Source: Eledone cirrhosa (Eukaryota). Taken from it: 64,000 bases of DNA. Of this stretch, positions 7 to 53,945 are shown piece after piece. Made by a program: the position numbers and the translations under genes. The notes under the pieces were generated by a model that saw only the letters and a program-made list of their open reading frames with translations, was not told the DNA's origin and made no database searches. Numbering within the stretch: position 1 is the stretch's first letter; every line of letters starts with the position of its first letter. The stretch covers positions 9,362,001 through 9,426,000 of the forward strand of contig OZ024756.1 in the NCBI GenBank assembly GCA_964016885.1, in the 5' to 3' direction.

Positions 7-1471
7 TTGCTAGAGGCTAGAAAATACGTATCTTTTGGGGAGGATGGTTCTTTTACGATCAACTCCCCAGAAGAAGTGCGTCAACAGGTTTATAAGAATA
101 CCGTAACCTACAGAACCATAACCAACGAAACAAGAAAGCCAGCGCAATTGACCGAAAGTCAAATTGAGCTGGTTCTGAAAGAAATTAAAAACGACATACT
201 CTTTATTCAAAGAGGAAAGCTGTATGCCAGCATTATGGTCCGAATGAAGGACGAAATGCTGGCGCAAAAATATTCGGTGGCACCTATAGTGTCACCACAA
301 TACACCTTCTTCCCCACATATAAAGGAAGAAGAACACAAAGAATAAGAACGTGGAGCCCAACGCCGGAAATTAACATCTGGTCCGTCCTAACAGGATTTA
401 CCGACCTAGATAAGGATATACTTATTTCAGCAGGGGAGTCCACCAGTGGACTGTTCGGGGGGGGGGGGGGAAGTCTGGAGGTTCTCTTACAGATGACACC
501 TGAGAGAATCTCCGGAATACCCGACCGAGTGCTACTGGATGGGCGAACCTTCATAAATATCACAGTGGAAGGCAGGAGACCCTCATGTTACCACTGCGCT
601 GGCAGAGGTCACCTGAGGACGGCCTGCCCTCTACTAACAACAAAAAAAAAACACTGCTACAAACACCACAACAACAACAAAAACAACCAGCACCACCATC
701 ACAAAAACAACAAAATACACTCCCATCACCACCAGAACGACAACAAAAACCAACAACACCACCACCACCACCACCACCACCACAACAACAACATCAACAA
801 CAGCTCAAGAAAACAACCCAAAACACGGTCCCACCCAGCCCCACCCCACAGAACACAAATACAAAAACATACGCAGTTCATACACAACCCGGAGATATAC
901 CCCTCCCCTCCAATACGGAAGAGGAGCTCATATCGTCGGAAGACGAGGGGGCTCCCTTCCAAAAAGTGAAAAGAAAAAAACGTACACACACCACACAAAC
1001 AAAAATAACCCCACCTGACAACACAACACAGACAATAAAACGCAAACTCATTCAACAACAACAAGCAAAAACAAACACAACAACACAAAAACTCTACACA
1101 TACATAAACAAAAACAATAAAAACCTAACTGAAAAAATAGAAAACAACCCTTCGATACAAACCGAAGGGCCGAATTTCGTAACGGCAATGGGACTCCCTA
1201 ACCTGAAAATGGTGAAAATCCCACTTGACATTTTCAAAACTTTGAAAGACATTTACCCTGAGGACGTGGGCCCACCCTGCACCAGGCCACTCAACCGCGT
1301 CCTCCTGAAAGGTTTTCCCCTCCCCTCCGCAAACACCCACACAGCTCCAAAGATCCCAACCCTCCACACACTAATACCCCCACACCACCACAAACCACCA
1401 CCCCACCCATAAATCCCTCCACCAGCCCCATGGAAACTGAGCGGCCCGAACCCCGGGACGCAGAGAGGTAA
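7..1471 (+). pseudogene. Tx1 ORF1 (gag-like zinc-knuckle protein), frameshifted
   Basis: ORFs 7-969 and 585-1412 join at the A-run near 642-651; both align with ORF1 of the copy at 31669-33511. Confidence 0.8.
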
Positions 1472-1494
1472 GTGCCTCTTTCTTTGCCACCAAC

Positions 1495-4442
1495 ATGGCT
1501 GTCTTAAGAGTAGGTTGTCTAAATGCGCGTGGCCTGGGCTCACCTTGGAAGCAAGCTAAACTTCTAAGTGACCTCAGGTCACAATGTATAAATGTGATGG
1601 TTATTTGCGAGGCCCGGATCAGCAGCATGCGACAGCTAGCCCCCACCTTTGATGACTTTGAGATGCACGCATCTCTCTGTCAGCCCGGAGGTGGGGGTGG
1701 GGTTGTCGTTCTGCTGCAAAAACATCTGGGTCTCGCTACACAGACGGTACACTTGGACCCGGAGGGTCGACTCGTGGTTCTGGACCTTGGCAATGGTGAA
1801 GGCGAAGCTTTTAGGCTTGTCGCCGTATACGCCCCTTTTGGGGCAATGCGGTCGAACTTCTTCCATCGTCTGGAGACTTTTCTAGGGATGTCCCGCTCCT
1901 TGCTTTTAGTGGGGGACTGGAATGGTATCCTAGATGCACGTTGGGACTATGTAGGGGCATGTCCCGATAGAGGGGGGTGTAACAGCCTTAAGGGGTTAAT
2001 CAGCCGATTTGACCTGGCCGATAGATACCGACTAGATTTTCCGACTGTACCAACCTGGACCTGGTCAAATAAGTGGTCAATCTAGATCGTACCTAGATAG
2101 GTTCTTAGTTAGAATTAAGGATAGGGACTTTTTAAGTTGTCCAGAAATGCTCATGGTGGGCTATTCAGACCACAAGTTAGTGACCTGCGTAGTCCACCTT
2201 GATAGAACGCATAGGCAGGGGCCCGGTTACTGGAAGCTCAACTTGTCCTTACCGGCAAGTAGAGCTTACAGGGACCGGATTAGAACCTTAGTTAAGGAGC
2301 GGTTGACGGGCGCCATCGTCAACAACAGGTGGTGGGGCTCTCTAAAAAGAGAGATTAGAGTAGTTTCAATAGGAGTTAGTAAGGAGTTAGCCTCAGATAG
2401 AAATAGGAAGGAAAGGGAGTTGGTAGTTAATGTTGAAGAGGCAATGAGAAGCGGCAACGTGGCCAGAGTGCAAGCGTCGAGAACGGTCTTGAACCAGTTC
2501 TTCGACGCGAAACACGAAGGCTGCGTTGTCCGAAGCAAAATACGTGCTCTGGGAAACGAGGGGACCAAAGCTGTTAGCTGGGCCCGCGTGACAGAAGCGA
2601 AAAGTGGGATTAAATCCACTATCCGGTCTTTGCGAGACCAGGATGGACGGGTGATCCTTGAACCTAAGCAAATGTGCGAGGCCTTTCAAAGGCACTTTGC
2701 CCAATTGTTCGGGAGGGGCGGGGAGCCGGTTGGAGATGTGGATTTCGGTCCATACCTCGACGGCCTGCCGCGTCTTTCGGACAGGGAGGCGAGGTCCTGC
2801 GACGGGCCGATCTCAGCTGCTGAAATAGGGGACGTGCTGAGCCTATGCGGCAAACGCAAATCTCCAGGACTCGATGGTCTGCCCTACGAACTATATATTA
2901 ATATGCCGGACTTGTTCCCCGATCTCCTCGAGGCGGTCTACTGCAACTGGCAATAGAACGGGAGAATTCCCTGTTCTGTGACCAAGGGCGTAGTCTCGCT
3001 AGTGAGGAAGGACGAGAACAAGGGGTATGACATTAGTAATTTTAGGCCCATAACTCTGCTAAATGCAGAGTTAAAGATTTTGGCGAAGGTGTTAGCGAAG
3101 AGGTTGGCGCTTGTCGTGGGCAACCTGGTGGGAGATGCGCAGACATGCGCTATCCCGTCCAGGTCCATCCACGACAACCTCCACCTCATGCGATACATCA
3201 TAGAGAGGGTTGGGAACGAACCCGGCTTTGGTGGGGCCCTGATAAATTTAGATCAGTCTAAAGCGTTCGATAGGGTGGACCATGGTTACCTGGATGCGGT
3301 GCTAGCGGCGACTGGGTTCGGACCCGTTTTCAGGGGCTGGATCACTGCCATGCACAGCAGCCGCATCTGCTCTAGAGTCAAGGTGAACGGCTACCTTTCG
3401 GAGCCGTTCGAAATCACCCGCTCCATCCGACAGGGATGCCCTCTCTCCTCCCTTCTGTATGTATTGGCTCTCGAGCCACTACTGCGGAAGTTGGAGTTGT
3501 TGCAGGGCATCCCTTTGGAACCGGGATTGCACAAAGCGGTGTCGGCCCATGCCGATGACGTAAACACGTAAAAATGCGTAAACACGCATTGAGGCTAAGG
3601 CACCTCCACGTATTCCTCACCGGTCAACCGGTGTGGGTCCCGTTTGTGAGGCGAGCCTCCCCGAGGCTCGTCTCGCTCACCGAGCTGCAGTCCTGGGTGA
3701 AGCAAAGACCGAGAAAACTGGGCGACTGGCACACCGAGTGTGCCCAGGCGCTCACGGCTCTCTGGCAGGCGGACCCGGCTATCGACGGAGACTCCACCTC
3801 GTCATTCTATAGAGGGCTGGTGGTTAGCGGGTGCGACGACGCCCTCGGAGAAGCCCTAGGCATGGAGGAGGACGAACTGGCCAGTCTATTCGGTAGGACT
3901 TTCGGCCCGGGACCTATGGACAACTTCCAGAAGTCCTTGGCCTGGCAGTGCTACCGAGGGGCTCTGCCCGTTCGGGATAAGCTCTACAGACACGGGCTCC
4001 CGGGTAGGGACCCCTCGAAAAAGATCTGTCCCAGATGCGTGCGCGACGAGGAAACCGTCGCGCACGCATTGGTGCACTGCCCGGGCGTTGCCGATCTGTG
4101 GGGCTATGTCGAACAACTGCTGTCACGGGTGGGACCAATTAGGTTGACCACCGAGTCCATTGTAACGATCAAGCCGCCTCCCCCCTTCAAAAATGAAGGG
4201 GAGGCGGTCTTCCTCTATGTAATAGCCATGGTAAAAGAGGCTATATGGTGGACGCGTCTGAAAGGGCTGAGGTCGGACACCTTTCTCTCCGGCCAACAAC
4301 TGGTCCTTTTCTTCCGATACCATTTTGGAAGAAGGATCAGGATGGAGAGAGAGGTGCTCCACTCCAGCCAGTTTATGAAAGGTGGGTGAAAGTTGCGAGA
4401 ATGGCCCGTGTGAATGGGCCTTCTCTCTACCTTAGCCTGTAG
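1495..4442 (+). pseudogene. Tx1 ORF2 (APE-RT-Zn knuckle), disrupted
   Basis: Split into 1495-2085, 2147-2956, 2978-3571 and 3574-4389; about 500 bp deleted near 3565 (DDV jumps to MRKHALRLRH) relative to the intact ORF2 at 28198-31635. Confidence 0.9.
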
Positions 4443-6059: not shown

Positions 6060-6466
6060 AAACGGAAAAAATGAAACGAAATTTCATTTCCCACTCTTAG
6101 TACGGCTGTTACTTAAATATAAGTATGTATACGTACATACATATATGTATACAGACGTACAGTAGTATGTATATATATATACATGCACACATATATATAT
6201 GTACGTATGGATTCACCGAACATTTATTATAATACTCGGTGTGTTTGTAAACAAACATCCCGAATTAAGTCGTAGTGTCTAGCAACCATCGTTGCTCTTT
6301 TGTTCAACACTGACAAAGGAACGCTGTACTAGTTTCAAGCTTATTAGCTATCGTCAGCAACGTATACCTTCCTGCCAGATGATTGAACGTCTGAAAGTAT
6401 ATACTTTCCTTATGCATATTAACGGTTGGGCAGCCTAATTTGCATATCGAGTGAGTTAATCAGCCG

Positions 6467-6509
<43 letters not shown>

Positions 6510-6570
6510 GGAAAAAATGAAACGAAATTTCATTTCCCACTCTTAGTACGGCTGTTACTTAAATATAAGT
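6060..6570 (-). mobile_element. Hammerhead-containing element family B (retrozyme-like), partial
   Basis: Homologous to 23217-23865 and 43330-44662; HHR at 6321-6363. Confidence 0.75.
6321..6363 (-). ncRNA. Type I hammerhead ribozyme (family B)
   Basis: Minus: ACGTTG-CTGACGA-T-AGCT aata AGCT-T-GAAA-CTA-GTA^CAGCGT; stem I ACGTTG/CAGCGT, palindromic stem III ACTAGT. Confidence 0.85.
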
Positions 6571-7200: not shown

Positions 7201-7371
7201 AAAATTGAACAGGAACAAAACAGAGAGGCAGTACGAACAAAGGTTTATTAATTTCACGCTCTTGAGAGTGGGGTGGTGTTAAGGAACGTCGTTTCGGGCA
7301 TAAGCCCTTCTTCAGGTGAAAAGTGTGTGGGAAGAGAGTTCAAAGGGTGTGTAGGGGAGTGGTGGTGAGAC

Positions 7372-23216: not shown

Positions 23217-23220
<4 letters not shown>

Positions 23221-23859
23221 TAAGTATGTATACGTACATACATATATGTATACAGACGTACAGTAGTATGTATATATATATATACACACATGCACACATA
23301 TATATATGTACGTATGGATTCACCGAATCTGTACGTCTGTATACATATATGTATGTACGTATACATACTTATATTTAAGTAACAGCCGTACTAAGAGTGG
23401 GAAATGAAATTTCCTTTCATTTTTTCCGTTTATCGTTTTCGGTGCGCCCGGCCGATTAACTCACTCGATATGCAAATTAGGCTGCTGTGCCGTTAATATG
23501 CATAAGGCAAGTATATACTTTCAGACGTTCAATCATCTGGCAGGAAGGTATACGTTGCTGACGATAGCTAATAAGCTTGAAACTAGTACAGCGTTCCTTT
23601 GTCAGTGTTGAACAAAAGAGCAACGATGGTTGCTAGACACTGTACGGCTTAATTCGGGATGTTTGTTTACAAACACACCGAGCATTATAATAAATGTTCG
23701 GTGAATCCATACGTACATATATATATGTGTGCATGTATGTATATATATATATACATACTATTGTACGTCTGTATACATATATGTATGTACGTATACATAC
23801 TTATATTTAAGTAACAGCCGTACTAAGAGTGAGAAATGAAATTTCGTTTCATTTTTTCC

Positions 23860-23865
<6 letters not shown>
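23217..23865 (+). mobile_element. Family B retrozyme-like element: short inverted arm plus about 1.2 tandem monomers (432-bp period)
   Basis: 23331-23431 is repeated at 23763-23863; inversion junction at ~23328; HHR at 23552-23594. Confidence 0.8.
23552..23594 (+). ncRNA. Type I hammerhead ribozyme (family B)
   Basis: ACGTTG-CTGACGA-TAGCTAATAAGCTT-GAAA-CTAGTA^CAGCGT. Confidence 0.85.
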
Positions 23866-28197: not shown

Positions 28198-31100
28198 CTA
28201 CAGGCTTATGTAAAGAGAAGGCCCATTCACACGGGCCATTCTCGCCACTTTCACCCACCTTTCATAAAAACGACTGGGGTGCAGCACCTCTCTCTCCATC
28301 CTGATCCTTCTTCCGAAATGATATCGGAAGAAACGGACCAGTTGTTGGCCAGAGAGAAAGGTGCCTGACCTCAGTCCTTTCAGACGCGTCCACCATACAA
28401 CCACTTTCGCCATGGCTATTACGCACAGAAACACCGCCTCTGCTTCATCTTTGAAGAGGGGAGGCGGCTTGATCATTACAATAGACTCGGTGGTCAACCG
28501 GATCGGTCCCACCCTTGACAGCAGTTGTTCGACATAGCCCCACAGATCGGCTACGCCCGAGCAGTGTACCAATGCGTGTGCAACGGTTTCCTCGTCGCAC
28601 ACGCATCTGGGACAGATCTTTTTGGCGGGGTCCCTACCCGGGCGCCCGTGTCTGTAGAGCCTTTCTCGAACGGGTAAAGCCCCTCGGTAGCACTGCCAGG
28701 CCAGGGACTTCTGGAAGTTGTCCATAGGTCCCGGGCTGAATGTCCTACCGAACAGGCTGGCCAGTTCGTCCTCCTCCATGTCTAGGGCTTCTCCGAGGGC
28801 GTCGTCGCACCTGCTGCGTACCAGCCCTCTATAGAGTGTTGCGGTGGAGTCTCCACTGATAACCGGATCCGCCTGCCAGAGGGCGGTGAGCGCCTGGGCA
28901 CACTCAGTGTGCCAGGCGCCCAGTTTTCTCGGTCTTTGCTTGACCCAGGATTGCAGCTCGGTGAGTGAGACGAGTCTGGGAAAGGTTCGTCTCACAAACG
29001 AGGCCCACACCGGTTGTCCGGTGAGGAATACGTAGAGGTGCCGTAGCCTTAATGCGTGTTTACGCATCATTAGCCACGGCATCCCCAGCCCTCCTTTCGA
29101 AGGGTGTTGACAGCAGATGGATCTCCTCACCATAGGAGCCCGCCTCTTCCAAAGGAATTGGAAGAGCGCGCGCTCCATCTTGGTGAGGGTTTCCCTTGGG
29201 CAGGGCACTACGGTCAGGCGGTAGTAGTTGACGGACGCTATATAAGTGTTCGCCACCTCCGCCCGACCTTTCAGGGATAGTTTGCAACTGGCCCACTTCT
29301 GGGTCAGTGCAAACACCCTGTTCGTAACCTCCGCCCAGTTTTTCTCCACCTGGAGGTCCGGTCCGAACCAGACCCCGAGCAACTTCACCGGGCCCTCCGT
29401 CCAGCGTCCGACGACGCCATCGGAGGGCATCGGTCTGCCCCTCCACGTGCCGAGTTGCAAACCGATCGACTTGTCCCGGTTCAGCTTAGCCCCTGTGAAC
29501 TTTTCGTACTCCTCCAGTAAGGTGCCGACCGCCTCGATTTCGGAGGCCGTCGACACCATTACTGTCACATCATCGGCGTAGGCTGACACCGCTTTCCGCA
29601 ATCCCGGTTCCAAAGGGATGCCCTGCAACAACTCCAACTTCCGCAGTAGTGGCTCGAGAGTCAACACATACAGAAGTGAGGAGAGAGGGCACCCTTGTCG
29701 GATGGACCGCGCGATTTTGAACGGCTCCGAGAGGTAGCCGTTCACCTTGACCCTAGAGCAGATGCGGCTGCTGTGCATAGCAGTGATCCAGCCCCTGAAA
29801 ACGGGTCCGAAGCCTGCCGCCGCTAGCACCGCATCCAGGTAACCATGGTCGACCCTATCGAACGCCTTAGATTGATCCAAGTTGATCAGAGCCCCACCAA
29901 AGCCGGGTTCGTTCCCAACCCTCTCTATGATGTATCGCATGAGGTGGAGGTTGTCATGGATGGACCTGGAAGGGATAGCGCATGTCTGCGCATCTCCCAC
30001 CAGGTTGCCCACGACAAGCGCCAACCTCTTTGCTAGCACCTTGGCCAAAATCTGTAACTCTGTATTTAGCAGAGTTATGGGCCTGAAGTTACTTATTTCG
30101 TCCCCCTTGTTCTCGTCCTTCCTCACTAGCGTGACTACGCCCTTGGTCACAGTACAGGGAATTCTCCCGTTCTGTTGCCAGTTGCAGTAGACCGCCTCGA
30201 GGAGATCGGGGAACAAGTCCGGCATAGCTAGATATAATTCGTAAGGAAGACCATCGAGACCCGGGGATTTGCGTTTGCCGCATTGGCTCAGCACGTCCTC
30301 TATCTCAGCGGCCGAAATCGGCTCCTCGCAGGACTTCGCCTCCCTGTCCGAGAGGCGCGGCAGGCCGTCGAGGTATGGACCGAAGTCCACGTTCCCAACC
30401 GGCTCCCCGCCCCTCCCGAACAGTCGGGCAAAGTGCCTTTGAAAGGCCTCACACATCTGCTTAGGCTCAAGAATCGCCCGTCCATCCAGGTCTCGCAAAG
30501 ACCGGATGGTGGATTTAGTTCCACTGTTGGCCTCTGTCACGCGGGCCCAGCTAACAGCTTTGGTCCCCTCGTTCCCTAGAGCACGTATTTTACTTCGGAC
30601 AACGCAACCTTCGTGCTTCGCGTCGAAAAACTGGCTCAAAGCCGTTCTCGACGCTAGCACTCTGGCCACGTCGCCGCTTCTAATTGCCTCTTCTACTCTA
30701 TCTATTAGCTCCCTTTCCTTCCTATTCCTATCCGCAGCTAGAACCTTACTAAATTCAATCGAGACTACTCTAATCTCTCTCTTTAGAGATACCCACCACC
30801 TGCTGTTGACGATCGCTCCAGTCAACCGTTCCTTAACTAACGTACTAATCCGATTCCTGTAGGCTCTACTTGCCGGCAAGGACAAGTTGAGCTTCCAGTA
30901 ACCGGGGCCCTGTCTATGCGTTCTATCAAGGTTGACCATGCAGGTCACCAACTTGTGGTCTGAATAGCCAACCATGAGCATTTCTGGACAGCTTAAAAAG
31001 TCCCTGTCCTTATTTCTAACTAAAAATCTATCTAGGTACGATCTAGATGATCCGCTGCGATTTGACCAAGACCAGGTTGGCACCGTCGGAAAATCTAGTC

Positions 31101-31635
31101 GAAATCTATCGGCCAGGTCAAATCGGCCGAGTAACCCCTTGAGGCTGTTGCACCCCTCTCTATCGGGACATGCCTCTGCATAGTCCCAACGTGCATCCAG
31201 GATACCATTCCAATCCCCCACTAAAAGCAGGGAACGGGACGTCCCTAGAAAAGACTCCAGACGCTGGAAAAAGTCGGGCCGCTCTGTCCCAAAAGGGGCA
31301 TATGCGGCTATCAGCCTAAAGGCTCTACCTTCACCACTGCCAAGGTCCAGCACCACCAGTCGACCCCCTGGGTCCAAGTGAACTATCTGTGTTGCAAGGC
31401 CCATATGTTTTTGCAGCAGAACGACAACCCCACCTCCACCTCCGGGCTGACAGAGAGATGCGTGCATCTCAAAGTCGTCAAAGGTGGGGGCTAGCTGTCG
31501 CATGCTGCTGATCCGGGCCTCGCAGATAACCATCACATTTATAGATTGTGACCTGAGGTCATTTAGAAGCATTGCTTGCTTCCAAGACGAGCCCAGGCCA
31601 CGCGCATTTAGACACCCTACTCTTAGCACAGCCAT
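28198..31635 (-). CDS. Tx1 ORF2: AP endonuclease - reverse transcriptase - CCHC knuckle, 1145 aa, uninterrupted
   Basis: NARGL/ICEAR/GDWN/SYLDRF/SDHK (APE); KSPGLDG, FRPITLLN, LDQSKAFDRV, RQGCPLS, AYADD, LLGVWF (RT); CPRC-EETVAHALVHC. Confidence 0.95.
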   Translation of the reverse strand: MAVLRVGCLNARGLGSSWKQAMLLNDLRSQSINVMVICEARISSMRQLAPTFDDFEMHASLCQPGGGGGVVVLLQKHMGLATQIVHLDPGGRLVVLDLGSGEGRAFRLIAAYAPFGTERPDFFQRLESFLGTSRSLLLVGDWNGILDARWDYAEACPDREGCNSLKGLLGRFDLADRFRLDFPTVPTWSWSNRSGSSRSYLDRFLVRNKDRDFLSCPEMLMVGYSDHKLVTCMVNLDRTHRQGPGYWKLNLSLPASRAYRNRISTLVKERLTGAIVNSRWWVSLKREIRVVSIEFSKVLAADRNRKERELIDRVEEAIRSGDVARVLASRTALSQFFDAKHEGCVVRSKIRALGNEGTKAVSWARVTEANSGTKSTIRSLRDLDGRAILEPKQMCEAFQRHFARLFGRGGEPVGNVDFGPYLDGLPRLSDREAKSCEEPISAAEIEDVLSQCGKRKSPGLDGLPYELYLAMPDLFPDLLEAVYCNWQQNGRIPCTVTKGVVTLVRKDENKGDEISNFRPITLLNTELQILAKVLAKRLALVVGNLVGDAQTCAIPSRSIHDNLHLMRYIIERVGNEPGFGGALINLDQSKAFDRVDHGYLDAVLAAAGFGPVFRGWITAMHSSRICSRVKVNGYLSEPFKIARSIRQGCPLSSLLYVLTLEPLLRKLELLQGIPLEPGLRKAVSAYADDVTVMVSTASEIEAVGTLLEEYEKFTGAKLNRDKSIGLQLGTWRGRPMPSDGVVGRWTEGPVKLLGVWFGPDLQVEKNWAEVTNRVFALTQKWASCKLSLKGRAEVANTYIASVNYYRLTVVPCPRETLTKMERALFQFLWKRRAPMVRRSICCQHPSKGGLGMPWLMMRKHALRLRHLYVFLTGQPVWASFVRRTFPRLVSLTELQSWVKQRPRKLGAWHTECAQALTALWQADPVISGDSTATLYRGLVRSRCDDALGEALDMEEDELASLFGRTFSPGPMDNFQKSLAWQCYRGALPVRERLYRHGRPGRDPAKKICPRCVCDEETVAHALVHCSGVADLWGYVEQLLSRVGPIRLTTESIVMIKPPPLFKDEAEAVFLCVIAMAKVVVWWTRLKGLRSGTFLSGQQLVRFFRYHFGRRIRMEREVLHPSRFYERWVKVARMARVNGPSLYISL

Positions 31636-31668
31636 GTTGGTGGTAAAGAGAAAAGGGAAACGGGCCGC

Positions 31669-33300
31669 TCAATTTCCATGCTGGTTGGGGATGGGTTGTT
31701 GGGTGGGGTGGTGGTTTGTGGAAGTGAAGGGGCATCGGTGTGTTGTGGGGTTGGGGTGTTTGTCGTTGAGTGGGTGTCTGGGTGGGGGGGGGGGGAAATT
31801 TTTTAGGAGGACGCGGTTGATTGGTTTGGCGCAGGTGGGGGGGGGGGGGGGCACGTCCTCCGTGAAATTTATTTTCAGTCTTTTGTACAAGTGCATTGGG
31901 ACTTTTATCATTTTCAAATGAGGTAGTCCCACAGCAGTTATAAAGTTTGGCCCTTCGGTTTGGACCGAAGGGTTTGCTGAAATTGTTTTCCGTAATTCTT
32001 TGTTGTCTGTGTTCATATATGTGTATTGTAAGGTCTTTTTTTGTGTAGCAGTTAGTGTTGTGTGACAGGGAGGGGTGGTTTGTGTGTAGTTTGTGTTCTC
32101 TTGGGGGGGGGGGGGGGGGGTTAAAGTTAACATGTGTGTCTGTGGTGCGTCTCCTCTTCTTTCTTTTTACTTGTTGAAAAGGATCTTTTTCGTCTTGCGA
32201 CGAAAGAGGTTCGTCTTCCTTGTTGGGTGGGAGGGGTATGTTTTCTGGTAGTGTTTGCGGTGTGCGTGTTTTTGTATTTGTTTTGGGTGGGGAGGGATTG
32301 GGTGGGACAGTATTCTGTGTTATTTTTTCACGTGTTTGTTGTTGTTGTTGTTGTGGTGGTGGTGGTGGTGGGGTTGTTGGTTTTTGTTGTTGTTGTGGTT
32401 GTTTTTGTTGTTGTAGTTGGGGTGGTGTTGGTGTTGGTAGCAGTGTTTTTTTCTGTGTGAGCTGGGGACAGGCAGCCCTCAGGTGACCTCTATTGCCACA
32501 GAGGTAACAGGAGGGACGCCTACCCTCCACAATAATGTTGAGGTGGGTACGGTCATCCAGCATGACGCGCTCAGGGATTTGGGCGATGCGTTCTGGCCTT
32601 ATTTGGGTCAGAACTTCGAGGCTCGTTCCACTGAACGCATCGCCGGATGCCTTCCCTATTGAAATGAGGTTGTCCTCGTCTAAATTGAGGAAACCGGTTA
32701 GTAACCACCAGTAGTTTATGTTTGGGGTGATGGTGGTTATCCATATCCTCTGGGTTTTTTTACCCATGTAGGTGGGGAAGAATGTGTAGTGTGTGGACCG
32801 AATTGGCGACACAGAGTATTTTTTTGCCGCCAATTCGTCTTTCATCAATATGGATAAACTCCCATAGAGTTTATCCTTTTGTATGAAAGTGATGTCTCTC
32901 ATCGCGTCTTTCAAGACTAACTGAATTTCCGCTTGAGATGGTTGCGCTGGTTTCTTTGTTTTATTTAAAATTGTTCGGAATACGACAGTTCGTAATTCCG
33001 TCTGTCTTTTTAGCTCCGGAGGTGAATGTATAGAAAACGAACCGTTTTCGCCAAAAGACACATATTTCTTGGCTTTTTCCAGCATTTCTTTTGCTTTTGA
33101 AATATCTTCCAGCACATAAGCGACTGATAATTTAGCCGTTTGTGCAAAAGATATTTTGTTTTCGTTTTGGATATTAGTATTGTTTTGTTTCTCGTCGTTT
33201 GAGTTGTTTTCATCTTTGTTGTTGTTGTTGTCTTTCTCGTTTCGTGTGTGGATACTTGTGACGTTTGTGTTGTTGTTGTTTTTGTTGTCTTTATTGTTGC

Positions 33301-33331
<31 letters not shown>

Positions 33332-33511
33332 GTTGTTTTCAAATTCTTGTGTAGTTGTGGCTACATCTAGTGGTCGGTCAACAGGTGAAGACAATTCTTC
33401 CTCTCTCTGACCTCTGCCTTTGGCATCTGCTGCTGTGACAGTGGCAGGGGGAAGCTGTGAGTATGACTTCCCCTTTCCTTCTTTGATTGATGGTGAAGAT
33501 GCTTCAGCCAT
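31669..33511 (-). CDS. Tx1 ORF1 (zinc knuckle CYLCGNRGHLRAAC); apparent frameshift at the G-homopolymer ~32103-32120
   Basis: ATG of MAEASSPS at 33511; the conserved C-terminal block (NPSVQTEGPNF..LKMIKVP) lies in the alternative frame 31669-32133; exact 3' end uncertain. Confidence 0.75.
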
Positions 33512-33736
33512 TTTTCTCAAAATAGGGTTTTTCGAAGTTTTTCGAAAGATAAAATGTTTACAATACTATTTCGCCCAAAGGCGCAGAATATTTTGAGAGA
33601 CCGACCAGATCAAAATTTGACCTGGCAGTCCCTCTACAAAATGGTACAAAAATGAAAGTTTACAGTTTACAATTTCCGTATGAATTTAAACAAAAACTTA
33701 CCGAGCGAGCTCAGCACATGTGTCCATCGACAGAGA

Positions 33737-38343: not shown

Positions 38344-38400
38344 TTATACACACAGACATTCACACACAATCATATACACACATATACACACATATAATTA

Positions 38401-40262
38401 CTGGTACAACGTGAAATAAAGTGTCTTGCTCAAGGACACGGTGGACTGGAACAACGTGAAATAAAGTGTCTTGCTCAAGGACACAGTGGACTGGAACAAC
38501 GTGAAATAAAGTATCTTGCTCAAGGACACAGTGGACTGGAACAACGTGAAATCAAGTGTCTTGCTCAAGGAAACAGTGGACTGGAGCAACAGGAAATGCA
38601 GTGTCTTGCTCAAGGACACAGTGGACTGGAGCAACGTGAAATAAAGTGTCTTGCTCAAGGACACAGTGGACTCGAGCAACGTGAAATAAAGTGTGTTGCT
38701 CAAGGACACAGTAAACTGGAGCAACGGGAAGTAAAGTGTCTTGCTCAAGGACACAATGGACTGGAGCAACGTGAAATAAAGTGACTTGCTCAAGGACACA
38801 GTGGACTGGAACAACATGAAATAAAGTGTCTTGCTCAAGGACACAGTAGACTGGAGCAACGTAAATTAAAGTGTCTTGCTGAAGGACACAGTAGACTGGA
38901 ACAACGTGAAATAAAGTGTCTTGTTCAAGGACACAGTGGACTGGAACAACGTGAAATAATGTGTCTTGCTCAAGGACACAGTGGACTGGAGCAACGTGAA
39001 ATAAAGTGTCTTGCTGAAGGACACAGTGGACTGGAGCAACATGAAAAAAAGTGTCTTGCTCAAGGACACACTGGACTGGAACAAGGTGAACTAAAGTGTG
39101 TTGCTCAAGGACACAGTGGACTGGAGCAACGTGAAATAAAGTGTCTTGCTCAAGGACACAGTGGACTGGATCAACGTGAAATAAAGTGTCTTGCTCAAGG
39201 ACACAGTGGATTGGAGCAACGGGAAATAAAGTGTCTTGCTCAAGGACAGTGGACTGGAGCAACGTGAAATAAAGTGCCTTGCTCAAGGACACAGTGGACT
39301 GGAACAAGGTGAAATAAAGTGTCTTGCTCAAGGACAAAGTGAACTGGAGCTACCTGAAATAAAGTGTCTTGTTCAAGGACACAGTGGACTGGAGCTACCT
39401 GAAATAAAGTGTCTTGCTCAAGGACACAGTGGACTGGAGCAACGTGAAATAAAGTGTCTTGCTCAAGGACACAGTAAAGTGGAGCAACGTGAAATAAAGT
39501 GTCTTGCTCAAGGACACAGTGGACTGGAGCAACGTGAAATAAAGTGTCTTGCTCAAGGACACAGTGGACTGGAGCAACGTGAAATAAAGTGTCTTGCTCA
39601 AGGACACAGTGGACTGGATCAACGTGAAATAAAGTGTCTTGCTCAAGGACACAGTGGACTGGAGCAATGTGAAATAAAGTGTCTTGTTCAAGGACGCAGT
39701 GGACTGGAGCAACATGAAATAAAGTGTCTTGCTCAATGACACAGTGGACTGGAGCAACGTGAAATAAAGTGTCTTGCTCAAGGACACAGTGGACTGGAGC
39801 AACATGAAATAAAGTGTCTTGCTCAATGACACAGTAAACTGGAACAACGTGAAATAAAGTGTCTTGTTCAAGGACACAGTGGACTGGAGCAACGTGAAAT
39901 AAAGTGTCTTGCTCAAGGAGAGAGTGGACTGGAGCAACGGGAAATAAAGTGTCTTGCTTAAGGACACAGTGGACTGGAGCAACGTGAAATAAAGTGTCTT
40001 GTTCAATGACACAGTGGACTGGAGCAACGTGAAATAAAGTGTCTTGCTCAAGGACACAATGGACTGGAGCAACGTGAAATAAAGTGTCTTGCTCAAGGAC
40101 ACAGTGGACTGGAACAACGTGAAATAAAGTGTCTTGCTCAAGGACACAGTAGACTGGAGCAACGTGAAATAAAGTGTCTTGCTCAAGGACAGTGGACTGG
40201 GGTATCATGAAATAAAATGTCTTGCTCAAGGACAGTGGTCTGGGTTAACATGAAATAAAATG
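38401..40262. repeat. 45-bp satellite (~41 units) derived from the CORE-like segment of the OR-like SINE
   Basis: Unit CTGGAGCAACGTGAAATAAAGTGTCTTGCTCAAGGACACAGTGGA closely matches the SINE segments at 48825-48865 and 57591-57628. Confidence 0.92.
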
Positions 40263-40572
40263 TCTTTCAAATCTGGCTGATCAGTTAGATCTGCTAATAT
40301 GCAGATATAACTAATCAGCCAGTCTGCTAATATGCAAATCAGGCCGATCAGTCACTGTATTTTTGAAAATAGCATATATTTTCACTAGCTCTGACAGTTT
40401 GGCAGGTGAACAGTGAGCTGTACTGAGGAAGGGTGATGCCCAGAAACATTAGCGTCTGCAGTTCTGTTCCCATGCCAACACAAGAGCAAGAATGAAGTGT
40501 TCATTCTACTGATATGGCTATAAAATAGAGGCTTGTTTGCATAATTGCAAACAAATCGAATGTTATTATTGT

Positions 40573-40760
40573 GAATTGGCAATATTGGTAGAGGGTCGGA
40601 CGCCTTGCTTTGACGCATAGAGTTACGGCCCTTGCTATTCTGAGTTCAAATCCTGCCGAGGTTAACTTTGCCTTTCATCCTTACGGGGTCGATAAAATAA
40701 AGTACCAGTAATGTACTGGTTAATTTGCTGGCTTTGTGCCAAAAGTAGAAACAATTATTA
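40573..40760 (+). mobile_element. OK-like SINE
   Basis: Family consensus. Confidence 0.8.
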
Positions 40761-40829
40761 ATATTCGAAAAACTCAGATTACATTTATTGTATTCAGCCA
40801 TGTAGAGCGAAAATTATATATATATACTT

Positions 40830-42433: not shown

Positions 42434-42478
42434 AGTCATAGTCCTTTCGTCACACACTCTGTGACCTCTTCAGTGACT
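42434..42478 (-). ncRNA. Type I hammerhead ribozyme (inverted arm)
   Basis: Reverse complement of 42588-42632. Confidence 0.8.
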
Positions 42479-42587
42479 GGGGATTCCTTTCTTCGTTTCT
42501 GTGCCTTTCCTTTCTTCTATCCTACGCCATTTTGTTTGGCGTAGGATAGAAGAAAGGAAAGGCACAGAAACGAAGAAAGGAATCCCC

Positions 42588-42632
42588 AGTCACTGAAGAG
42601 GTCACAGAGTGTGTGACGAAAGGACTATGACT
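42588..42632 (+). ncRNA. Type I hammerhead ribozyme, minimal stem III
   Basis: AGTCA-CTGAAGA-G-GTCACA gagtg TGTGAC-GAAA-GGA-CTA^TGACT. Confidence 0.8.
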
Positions 42633-43290: not shown

Positions 43291-43333
<43 letters not shown>

Positions 43334-43386
43334 GTAAGTATGTATGTATACGTACATACATATATGTATACAGACGTACAGTAGCA

Positions 43387-43460
<74 letters not shown>

Positions 43461-43615
43461 TACATACAGGTACACATACATATATGCACGCATCAGTTTA
43501 GCGGACGCTTATTATAACGCCGCTTTGTTCGTTTGTAAACAAACTGAACAGCATGAATTTATGCCATACGGTCTTAAGGCAACCACGTCACCTTTTTGTT
43601 CAACACTGACACAGG

Positions 43616-43659
43616 AACGATGTACTAGTTTCAAGCTTGTTAGCTATCATCAGCACCGT
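43616..43659 (-). ncRNA. Type I hammerhead ribozyme (family B)
   Basis: Minus: ACGGTG-CTGATGA-TAGCTAACAAGCTT-GAAA-CTAGTA^CATCGT. Confidence 0.87.
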
Positions 43660-44091
43660 CTACACATCTGCCAGATAGTTGAACGTTCGAAAGTATATAC
43701 TTTCCTTATGAAAATTAACGGCTGAGCAGCCTAATTTGCATATTGAGTGAGTTAAATCGGTCAGGCATACCGAAAACGGTAAGTTGAAAAAAAAATGAAA
43801 ACGAAATTTCATTTCTCACTCTTAGTATGGCACTTACTTAAATGTAAGTATGTATGTATACGTACATACATATATGTATACAGACGTACAGTAGCATGCA
43901 TATATATATATATATATATACATATATATACATATATACATACAGGTACACATACATATATGCACGCATCAGTTTAGCGGACGCTTATTATAACGCCGCT
44001 TTGTTCGTTTGTAAACAAACTGAACAGCCTGAATTTATGCCATACGGTGTTAAGGCAACCACGTCACCTTTTTGTTCAACACTGACACAGG

Positions 44092-44135
44092 AACGATGTA
44101 CTAGTTTCAAGCTTGTTAGCTATCATCAGCACCGT
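44092..44135 (-). ncRNA. Type I hammerhead ribozyme (family B)
   Basis: Core and stems identical to 43616-43659. Confidence 0.87.
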
Positions 44136-44277
44136 TTACCCATCTGCCAGATAGTTGAACGTTCGAAAGTATATACTTTCCTTAACTCACTCAATATGCA
44201 AATTAGGCTGCTCAGCCGTTAATTTTCATAAGGAAAGTATATACTTTCGAACGTTCAACTATCTGGCAGATGGGTAA

Positions 44278-44321
44278 ACGGTGCTGATGATAGCTAACAA
44301 GTTTGAAACTAGTACATCGTT
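44278..44321 (+). ncRNA. Type I hammerhead ribozyme (family B, inverted arm)
   Basis: ACGGTG-CTGATGA-TAGCTAACAAGTTT-GAAA-CTAGTA^CATCGT. Confidence 0.85.
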
Positions 44322-44508
44322 CCTGTGTCAGTGTTGAACAAAAAGGTGACGTGGTTGCCTTAACACCGTATGGCATAAATTCAGGCTGTTCAGTTTGTTT
44401 ACAAACGAACAAAGCGGCGTTATAATAAGCGTCCGCTAAACTGATGCGTGCATATATGTATGTGTACCTGTATGTATATATGTATATATATGTATATATA
44501 TATGTATA

Positions 44509-44546
<38 letters not shown>

Positions 44547-44659
44547 TGCTACTGTACGTCTGTATACATATATGTATGTACGTATACATACATACTTACA
44601 TTTAAGTAAGTGCCATACTAAGAGTGAGAAATGAAATTTCGTTTTCATTTTTTTTTCAA

Positions 44660-44695
<36 letters not shown>

Positions 44696-52632: not shown

Positions 52633-53945
52633 CGAGGTGTGTCCGAAAAGTTCCAGGACTGATGTTACAAAAGATTTATTTCAAATCCAAACTTCGCACT
52701 AAGAGTTTTCTCCTTCAAAGTAATCCCCCTGGAGTATGTAACTGTAATCTTAGCTCTTTGCAGCGATCAAACTTTTTTCTTCATAATTTTATATACATGT
52801 CCGCTGTTTCAGGTCGTCAAGCAATGAACGCAGAGCAACGAACGAACTTGAAGTTTCTGGTACGGTTGGGGAAAACTCCGTCAGAAGCACTAGGATTGCT
52901 GCAGTAAGTGTATGGAGATGAGACGATGTCACGCTCACGTGTTTTTGAGTGGTGCAAAAGGTTTAAAGAAGGACGCGAGGACATGGAAGATGACCCCAGG
53001 AGCGGAAGGCCCTCAACAACCAGGACTGAGGTCAACGTTGAGCGCGTCAGGCAGATGGTGCGTAGCGATCATCGGCTGCCTGTTCAACTGATGGCAAATG
53101 AGCTGGGCATGAATCGGGACAGCGTCTGGAAGATTCTCACTGAAGATTTGGACATGCGGAAACTCTGCGCGAAGATGGTACTAAAACTGCTGAACGATGA
53201 CCAGAAGGGTCGACGCATGCAAATGTGCCAGGACATCCTCGAGCGTCTTGAAACCGAACCAGACTTGCTAGGGACAGTCATCACCGGTGATGAGTCATGG
53301 ATCTTCGAGTACGATCCAGAAAGCAAACGCCAGAGCCTTCAGTGGAAGAGTCCGCCGTCGCCAAGGCCGAAGAAAGCACGACAGTCGAAGTCCAAAGTCA
53401 AGGTCATGTTGATCACATTCTTCGATGTGAGGGGGATCGTCCACTGCGAGTTATTGCCACAGGGCCAGACGATGAACCAACATGTCTACAAAGAGATACT
53501 GCAGCGTTTGCTTCGTTCAGTGCGCGAGAAGAGGCGAGAGTTCTGGCAGGACAACTCGTGGCTGCTTCACCATGACAACGCGCCTGCTCACAATGCCCTG
53601 AGCATCCGACAGTTCCTGGCCAAGAAGAACATCGCCGTGCTGGAGCAACCTCCCTACTCCCCCGATCTGGCTCCGTCTGATTTTTTCCTATTCCCCAAGC
53701 TCAAGGGGGTCATCAAGGGGACCCGTTTTGAAGACGTGGACGACATCAAAAAGGCTGTGACGACGGAACTGCGGAGGATCCCGGAAGAATCCTTACAGGA
53801 GTGCATGCAAGCGTGGCAGAAAAGGATGGAAAAGTGCATTAGACTCCAGGGGGATTACTTTGAAGGAGAAAACTCTTAGTGTGAAGATTGGGTTTGAAAT
53901 AAATCTTTTGTGACATCAGTCCTGGAACTTATCTGACACACCTCG
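52633..53945 (+). mobile_element. mariner (DD34D, irritans-like) DNA transposon, full length
   Basis: ~57-bp TIRs CGAGGTGTGTCCGAAAAGTTCCAGGACTGATG... / ...CATCAGTCCTGGAACTTATCTGACACACCTCG; TA on both sides. Confidence 0.95.
52824..53879 (+). pseudogene. mariner transposase with a single premature stop (TAA at 52905-52907)
   Basis: MNAEQRTNLKFLVRLGKT..LLQ*VYGDE..; RSGRP, TGDESW, HHDNAPAH, YSPDLAPSDF. Confidence 0.92.

Follow-up and report, generated by a model that had tools for sequence, protein, structure and literature searches.

Metazoan non-LTR retrozymes, as portrayed in the accounts cited here, are tandem repeats of non-coding units of a few hundred nucleotides that carry one type I hammerhead each, with low GC content and a predicted self-paired circle (PMC7229834; PMC7761336; Li et al., 2026, bioRxiv 10.64898/2026.07.22.740005). 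Unit lengths of 150-450 bp, and of up to 972 bp in Li et al. (2026), have been reported, and the model proposed for their movement is mobilisation by Penelope-like elements (PLEs) via the circle. EN+ PLEs leave tandem and inverted 5'-truncated copies with a tail at one end only, and reverse transcription (RT) in them is described as beginning at two sites and as extending both strands, their targets as AT-rich or microsatellite and their stem III as palindromic (Cervera, 2014, PMC4209133; Craig et al., 2021; Frangieh et al., 2024, PMC11167929). The proposal that PLEs copy by a rolling circle dates from 2014-2020, and the sources cited here contain no trace from donor to daughter for it. Newt satellite 2 and the schistosome repeats are likewise hammerhead tandem repeats, cited as having an internal promoter with which an upstream unit drives the next (PMC2220036; PMC6765202); the newt promoter is of the snRNA type and used by polymerase II, and the schistosome one belongs to polymerase III.

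The repeat described here, from a window of 64,000 nucleotides of the Eledone cirrhosa genome (contig OZ024756.1, positions 9,362,001 to 9,426,000; coordinates below are those of the window), resembles the first of these systems in its unit and the second in its ends. It differs from EN+ PLEs in having no ORF, a tail of about 60 nt instead of 30-40 nt and an extended stem I in place of the minimal PLE ribozyme, and from the metazoan retrozymes treated in the cited accounts in features that those accounts do not describe: a cephalopod host, a two-armed build with paired fixed ends, (TA)n targeting and the tracing of a donor unit.

The locus, its ribozymes and the family

The insertion at 43330..44662 consists of a minus arm (44184-43330) placed head to head with a plus arm, the two meeting by their 5' ends at 44182-44184. 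The minus arm begins with unit A (43781..44184, minus strand), which is 5'-truncated, and continues with unit B (43330..43780, minus strand), which terminates at a SHORT 3' end (ACATTT) in (TA)n. Arm C (44182..44662, plus strand) is a single 5'-truncated unit that runs from monomer position 344 round to 319 and terminates at the long TAIL 3' end (CAACTT), abutting (TA)n. The stretch between the SHORT and TAIL end points (43781..43843, minus strand) is about 60 nt long and holds a hairpin and a T run (43801-43786). The (TA)n target occupies 43293..43329 on the left and 44662..44693 on the right, in agreement with the first-pass annotation, which had also read the plus-strand copy as a third, inverted monomer; its motif is indeed present at 44314, but the copies are two divergent arms joined by their 5' ends and not independent monomers. 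Apart from one substitution and a difference in microsatellite length, unit A and arm C are near-identical, and unit A lacks the upstream box of the module discussed below. Unit B has four to five private substitutions, which hardly occur in the run X1 contigs; the idea that they prove a linear template was discarded, since 4-5 against 0 and 1 changes lie within chance. Three reading frames of 124-145 aa that span the microsatellite gave no Pfam match.

The motif ACGGTG-CTGATGA-T AGCT AACA AGCT T-GAAA-CTA-GTA-CATCGT occurs with its N17 at 44099 and 43623 on the minus strand and at 44314 on the plus strand, so that the claim of tandem minus-strand units with a type I hammerhead in each holds. 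Hammerhead A (44083..44145, minus strand; predicted cut 44099/44098) is of type I with an extended stem I, a U-U at the base of a 4-bp stem II and a 2-bp stem III with the palindrome ACUAGU; the axolotl ribozyme HHR_Amex2 is reported with the same U-U at the base of helix II and the same 2-bp helix III. The cores of hammerhead B (43607..43669, minus strand; predicted cut 43623/43622) and hammerhead C (44268..44330, plus strand; predicted cut 44314/44315) are intact, the former with a distal stem I weakened through a private change and the latter with one stem II pair now G-U. The ribozyme is not of the minimal kind: folding gives a stem I of 6 pairs, a bulge and then a second helix of 5-8 further pairs. 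The predicted release product (43623..44098, minus strand) has the cut-to-cut length of 476 nt claimed earlier and, folded as a circle, reaches -156 kcal/mol (z -8.3, 30 shuffles), a strong self-pairing that without the microsatellite amounts to z -4.0 (30 shuffles).

Among 20 distinct variants of the ribozyme, 96.5% of cells are paired, two pairs are changed on both sides and three more stay paired despite one-sided changes; the subfamilies being related, these amount to few independent covariation events. Of 283 sampled units whose flanks could be recognised, 256 have an intact core, in a sample biased to intact copies. A 2-bp stem III with a palindrome is the form that needs dimers, and only one of nine predicted Xenopus retrozyme dimers is reported to have cleaved in vitro (Li et al., 2026). 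Judged by their predicted structure, the hammerheads of 43330..44662 may be capable of self-cleavage. The only Rfam match to the hammerhead was a sub-threshold one to Hammerhead_HH9 (17.5 bits against a gathering score of 52, E 0.081), and over the whole window the top Rfam matches were hairpins and miRNAs on repeats, below their gathering scores.

Two further copies in the window belong to a sister subfamily. One is a two-armed insertion (23217..23864, plus strand; short and tail ends) with a 432-nt period and a predicted cut at 23588 (N17); the other (6060..6570, minus strand) has its predicted cut at 6327/6326 (N17 at 6327) and a tail that terminates in (TA)n. The stem I of this subfamily, ACGTTG/CAGCGT, and the spacing of 432 nt between tails are as the first-pass annotation gave them, but 23217-23865 holds one hammerhead only, and the supposed circularly permuted junction is merely the place where tandem units continue past the tail end, which is no evidence for a circle. 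The G-U to U-G swap in stem I, taken for covariation, is real (55 versus 23 of 83 insertions) and probably goes back to one ancestral event.

In the genome of 3.0 Gb, the main ribozyme 31-mer has 11,425 exact matches, the sister ribozyme 35-mer has 7,419 and a tail 25-mer has 29,247, and the reversed controls have none; the motif, whose copy number had been proposed for checking, is thus no chance occurrence. Our detailed sample comprised 353 ribozyme units in 83 insertions, later 98 merged segments, taken from the best matches, from the first positions on C1 and from multi-unit loci chosen by hand, and is biased to young, intact copies. Unit length in the 83 insertions is mostly 420-600 nt, and the period is constant inside young insertions and different between insertions. 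The repeat is tandem, its period being some hundreds of base pairs, has a type I hammerhead in at least two consecutive units, is non-coding and lies dispersed alongside PLEs; target-site duplications, for which more than 4 bp is the criterion, are unreadable because the ends lie in (TA)n. By all the sequence criteria tested it is a non-LTR retrozyme, as had been suspected. The class itself is known, and on these sequence grounds the cephalopod family would be an additional member of it; we found no cephalopod retrozyme in the published literature, where supplements or Repbase/Dfam could list one, and the word 'ribozyme' does not occur in the main text of the repeat annotation for O. vulgaris. 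The family, with copies in the tens of thousands, makes up a sizeable and probably unannotated part of the genome, and it is a predicted source of circular and double-stranded RNA.

Insertion ends and a promoter-like module

The 3' ends of the arms fall at monomer position 257-260 (short) or 319 (tail), each abutting (TA)n, the tail end being about 60 nt longer than the short one. Among 115 insertion groups, 52 are divergent and two-armed and none is convergent. The scripted classification assigned 43 of the 52 to short plus tail, none to short plus short or tail plus tail, and left nine as cut off or unclassifiable (p 2e-13); an exception, L098, is short plus short by BLAST. Descriptions of PLEs give them an inverted truncated copy and a tail at one end but not at the other, and the enzyme of the anole PLE is described as extending both strands from two RNA start sites, which define the tail. 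The pairing of short and tail ends matches this one-end tail and these two RT start sites and is a PLE signature, and such PLE-type ends agree with the mobilisation by a Penelope-like reverse transcriptase proposed for the locus from the outset. In one further insertion (L085), about 28 nt of the DNA flanking one arm recur in reverse orientation past the other, resembling a target duplication that has been inverted.

Upstream of the ribozyme lies a promoter-like module (43693..43742, minus strand), with a 12-nt octamer-containing box at 43742-43731 and a TATA element at 43700-43693; arm C has the same box and TATA as unit B (44195..44244, plus strand). The elements read TATGCAAATTAG and then GTATATA, 5' of the ribozyme. 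The putative module resembles the promoters of the host U6, U6atac and MRP genes: in three distinct U6 promoters, MRP and U6atac (one mismatch) the box stands at -76 to -78 and GTATA at -31, so that five of six host U6-type genes have a comparable box and TATA and RNase P lacks the box. It was found in none of 14 other U6 copies and none of six U2 upstream regions, and the 12-mer is absent from 250 kb of control DNA. Box and TATA are 41 nt apart in the unit versus 45-47 nt in the host genes, the box also sits within a hairpin, and the unit lacks the distal ACCTCCCT-like box that visual inspection shows upstream of U6, U2 and RNase P. Local alignment score by itself was rejected as promoter evidence, 8-55 of 200 shuffles having reached the U6 score; it is the agreement in position that counts for the promoter reading. 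By U6 geometry, transcription would begin at 43669, where the extended ribozyme has its 5' edge. Runs of T4-T9 occur in every unit, and polymerase III would therefore stop short of a full unit. We consider it slightly more probable that the module is a working promoter than that it is not. It is a candidate internal promoter in a retrozyme, where a review states that retrozymes seem to have neither promoters nor motifs that point to a partner (PMC7761336).

A second, distantly related hammerhead repeat lies in the window at 40270-40800 (plus strand; hammerhead at 40423) and also at L070, L230, L237 and L247. Its stem I is extended as well, and it shares the box-TATA-TGGCAG module, upstream of which further octamer repeats lie; the module at 40330-40480 keeps nearly equal spacing, and the repeat accounts for nine of the first 100 module matches listed. 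One sister subfamily (e.g., L138 and L161) has an 8-nt deletion between TATA and ribozyme, which would shift the predicted start to the first base of the proximal stem I.

The copied template

The most direct information on the copying step comes from an insertion elsewhere in the genome, on C28, which has two arms with tail and short ends and 22 ribozymes (9+13). Sixteen of its 20 full units are identical over 490 nt including the microsatellite, and all 20 share one rare allele. The 35-mer with this allele has 26 exact matches in the genome: the 20 of C28, four in another subfamily and two in a heterogeneous array on C1636; no other run of consecutive units carrying it was found genome-wide. 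In the C1636 array one unit out of 54, and no other, equals the C28 unit (490/490); its neighbours lack the allele and differ at three to four further sites, and the matching unit never stands twice in a row. The flanks of the two loci are unrelated. Read-through of the C1636 array would have brought along the variants of the neighbouring units, so that it was one unit that was multiplied, and as judged from these sequences the C28 insertion stems from a single unit. The exactly matching stretch begins 114 nt ahead of the first cut and stops 54 nt past the second, so the junction falls in a window (-114 to +54) that contains the ribozyme cut and excludes both RT start sites; a second exact 490-nt window in C1636 would place the junction at +158 to +205, in the internal microsatellite. 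The trace concerns one insertion, whose true donor may be a lost array or one absent from the assembly; another insertion (L172) shares alleles with C1636 units and matches none exactly. Taken at sequence level, the C28/C1636 trace is unusually direct genomic evidence on the copying step.

The unit, its fold, the copy number, the (TA)n target, the head-to-head arms, the paired 3' ends and the single-unit origin of C28 form the observed basis of the reading that we hold to be probable, namely that of a non-LTR retrozyme cut to unit length, circularised and then copied in repeated turns into (TA)n by an enzyme borrowed from a PLE. The U6-like module of an upstream unit would drive transcription with read-through; the hammerheads would cut the RNA to unit length, with dimer-assisted cleavage through ACUAGU; and ligation of the monomer to a circle, a step we regard as likely, would follow. 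A Penelope-type reverse transcriptase/endonuclease would then prime on both DNA strands of (TA)n, starting reverse transcription at two sites about 60 nt apart on one RNA and copying the circle repeatedly, and the 5' ends of the two cDNAs would be joined. The complete version of this scheme, in which a self-promoted ribozyme circle parasitises a PLE through read-through, excision of exactly one unit by two hammerheads, a dimeric enzyme, two fixed start sites on that circle and both strands of a (TA)n break, is put forward only tentatively. If it were true, the pair of C1636 and C28 would be a genomic record of rolling-circle retrotransposition in an animal; and the family makes the copying step testable, through fixed RT starts and private alleles that link a daughter to its donor unit.

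The first-pass annotation had proposed a circRNA-forming family on the basis of the copy at 43330..44662. A unit-length, probably circular template is supported by the sequences of other copies, and the case is weaker for this one, which is probably a poor circle source. It is more likely a product than a source because unit A lacks the box, no ribozyme lies downstream of unit B and read-through would be antisense to arm C: minus-strand read-through from outside would transcribe the complement of A, arm C, first, and this complement would be expected to pair with unit A and block its ribozyme.

The foremost alternative, unlikely as we judge it, is that the PLE enzyme copies linear multimers that were transcribed across a genomic array and left uncleaved, with a dispensable ribozyme. 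In the anole PLE, cleavage is reported to be dispensable for insertion, and unprocessed RNA to be the dominant substrate in vitro; no arm 5' ends lie at the cut site; and two A/B arrays (L161 and L164), together with seven changes shared across arms, imply that some templates had more than one unit type. The latter changes come from 25 two-arm insertions with at least three usable units, which contain 134 singleton changes, seven shared across arms and 15 shared within one arm, nine of these 15 from one A/B array. However, a linear template for C28 requires a source of at least 12 consecutive allele-bearing units, which the assembly does not contain, and the sole exact match is a single unit amid differing neighbours; constant periods within insertions and different ones between them also speak against it. 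The two A/B arrays, of the sister family, alternate strictly between units of 420 and 422 nt with nine differences, a pattern that points to templates of dimer length or to dimers expanded later. A ribozyme defect in every other unit was discarded as the cause of such arrays, one such change in each of the two being expected among nine differences.

It is improbable, in our estimation, that the template was of unit length without being an RNA circle, whether through a reverse transcriptase jumping time after time between cleaved linear monomers or through a one-unit DNA circle that recombination excised and that was amplified or transcribed ahead of insertion. Such routes would yield the same identical multimers, and the second permissible junction window in the internal (TA)n is compatible with them. 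Against them stand the fixed PLE-type ends inside the unit and the 5' ends: among arms holding a ribozyme, none of 64 has its 5' end within 10 nt of the cut, which argues against a cleaved linear monomer. An RNA stage is also indicated, if weakly, by the insertion-fixed rare changes: on the sense strand A>G occurs seven times and T>C never, singletons having 14 and 12 (p 0.03), and three of the seven come from one old array. RNA circles have, moreover, been demonstrated for the coral, mussel and axolotl retrozymes, according to the accounts cited above. As a separate observation, interruptions of the internal (TA)n in 177 distinct unit blocks are G on the sense strand in 331 cases versus C in 34, and in the flanking (TA)n 38 versus 47; the G interruptions could be inherited motif slippage or fixed A-to-I edits.

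Penelope-like and other elements

The remaining alternative, that the repeat is only what is left of an autonomous PLE's pseudo-LTR (pLTR), having dispersed in the form of truncated ends and grown as satellite DNA, would explain ends and target as in PLEs, the reported match of Xenopus retrozymes to PLE pLTRs (Li et al., 2026) and the patchy, recombination-type variation of long old arrays, but it is very improbable and, for the retrozyme family, largely refuted, because units run tail to head without an ORF, PLE protein matches occur near only 0 of 30, 4 of 98 and 2 of 27 loci with no copy joined to a PLE ORF, and none of 11 PLE 3' regions, a minority of the PLE families, matches the promoter or the ribozyme block. 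The unit lacks the ORF with RT and GIY-YIG that marks an autonomous EN+ PLE, its sequence is unlike the autonomous PLE 3' regions examined, and in the loci examined the copies are not only the pLTR of an ORF-bearing element, the outcome that had been named as fatal to the retrozyme reading. At the four loci whose neighbours were inspected (L084, L087, L091 and L261), the PLEs have their own pLTRs or unrelated DNA lies between, and they are separate elements. The genome does contain PLEs that have long ORFs, end in (TA)n and carry hammerheads of their own, and 10,596 GIY-YIG candidates; neither the GIY-YIG scan nor 52 PLE loci yielded anything matching the unit's sequence beyond separate insertions, and no partner PLE was found among the 11 3' regions. 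Fifty-five comparisons of tail, promoter and ribozyme gave four weak matches (at most 1 of 100 shuffles), three of them on a segment that seems to be a separate element; the tail has a weak, tentative similarity to one PLE family and to a segment near another.

Other traces of such elements are present in the window. An inverted hammerhead pair at 42473-42593 has hammerheads identical to the one behind a divergent PLE ORF in L087 and so probably marks the pLTR end of an autonomous element of this kind. Several families are represented by further hammerhead-like motifs at 7315, 7695, 34629, 35859, 37078, 44754, 51537, 54416 and 57204, the last matching the ribozyme of an autonomous PLE family (L064). 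In the 3' regions of autonomous PLE families (L061, L068 and L079) there seem, by eye, to be hammerhead variants with U3-A8 replacing C3-G8 and a palindromic stem III, ACCGGU. The window also holds a LINE (28198-33565, minus strand) in which a 668-aa frame lies upstream of an endonuclease-RT frame of 1156 aa, a broken LINE (504-4389, plus strand), a mariner-type transposase (52908-53879, plus strand) and a 45-bp tandem array of about 42 copies (38400-40266).
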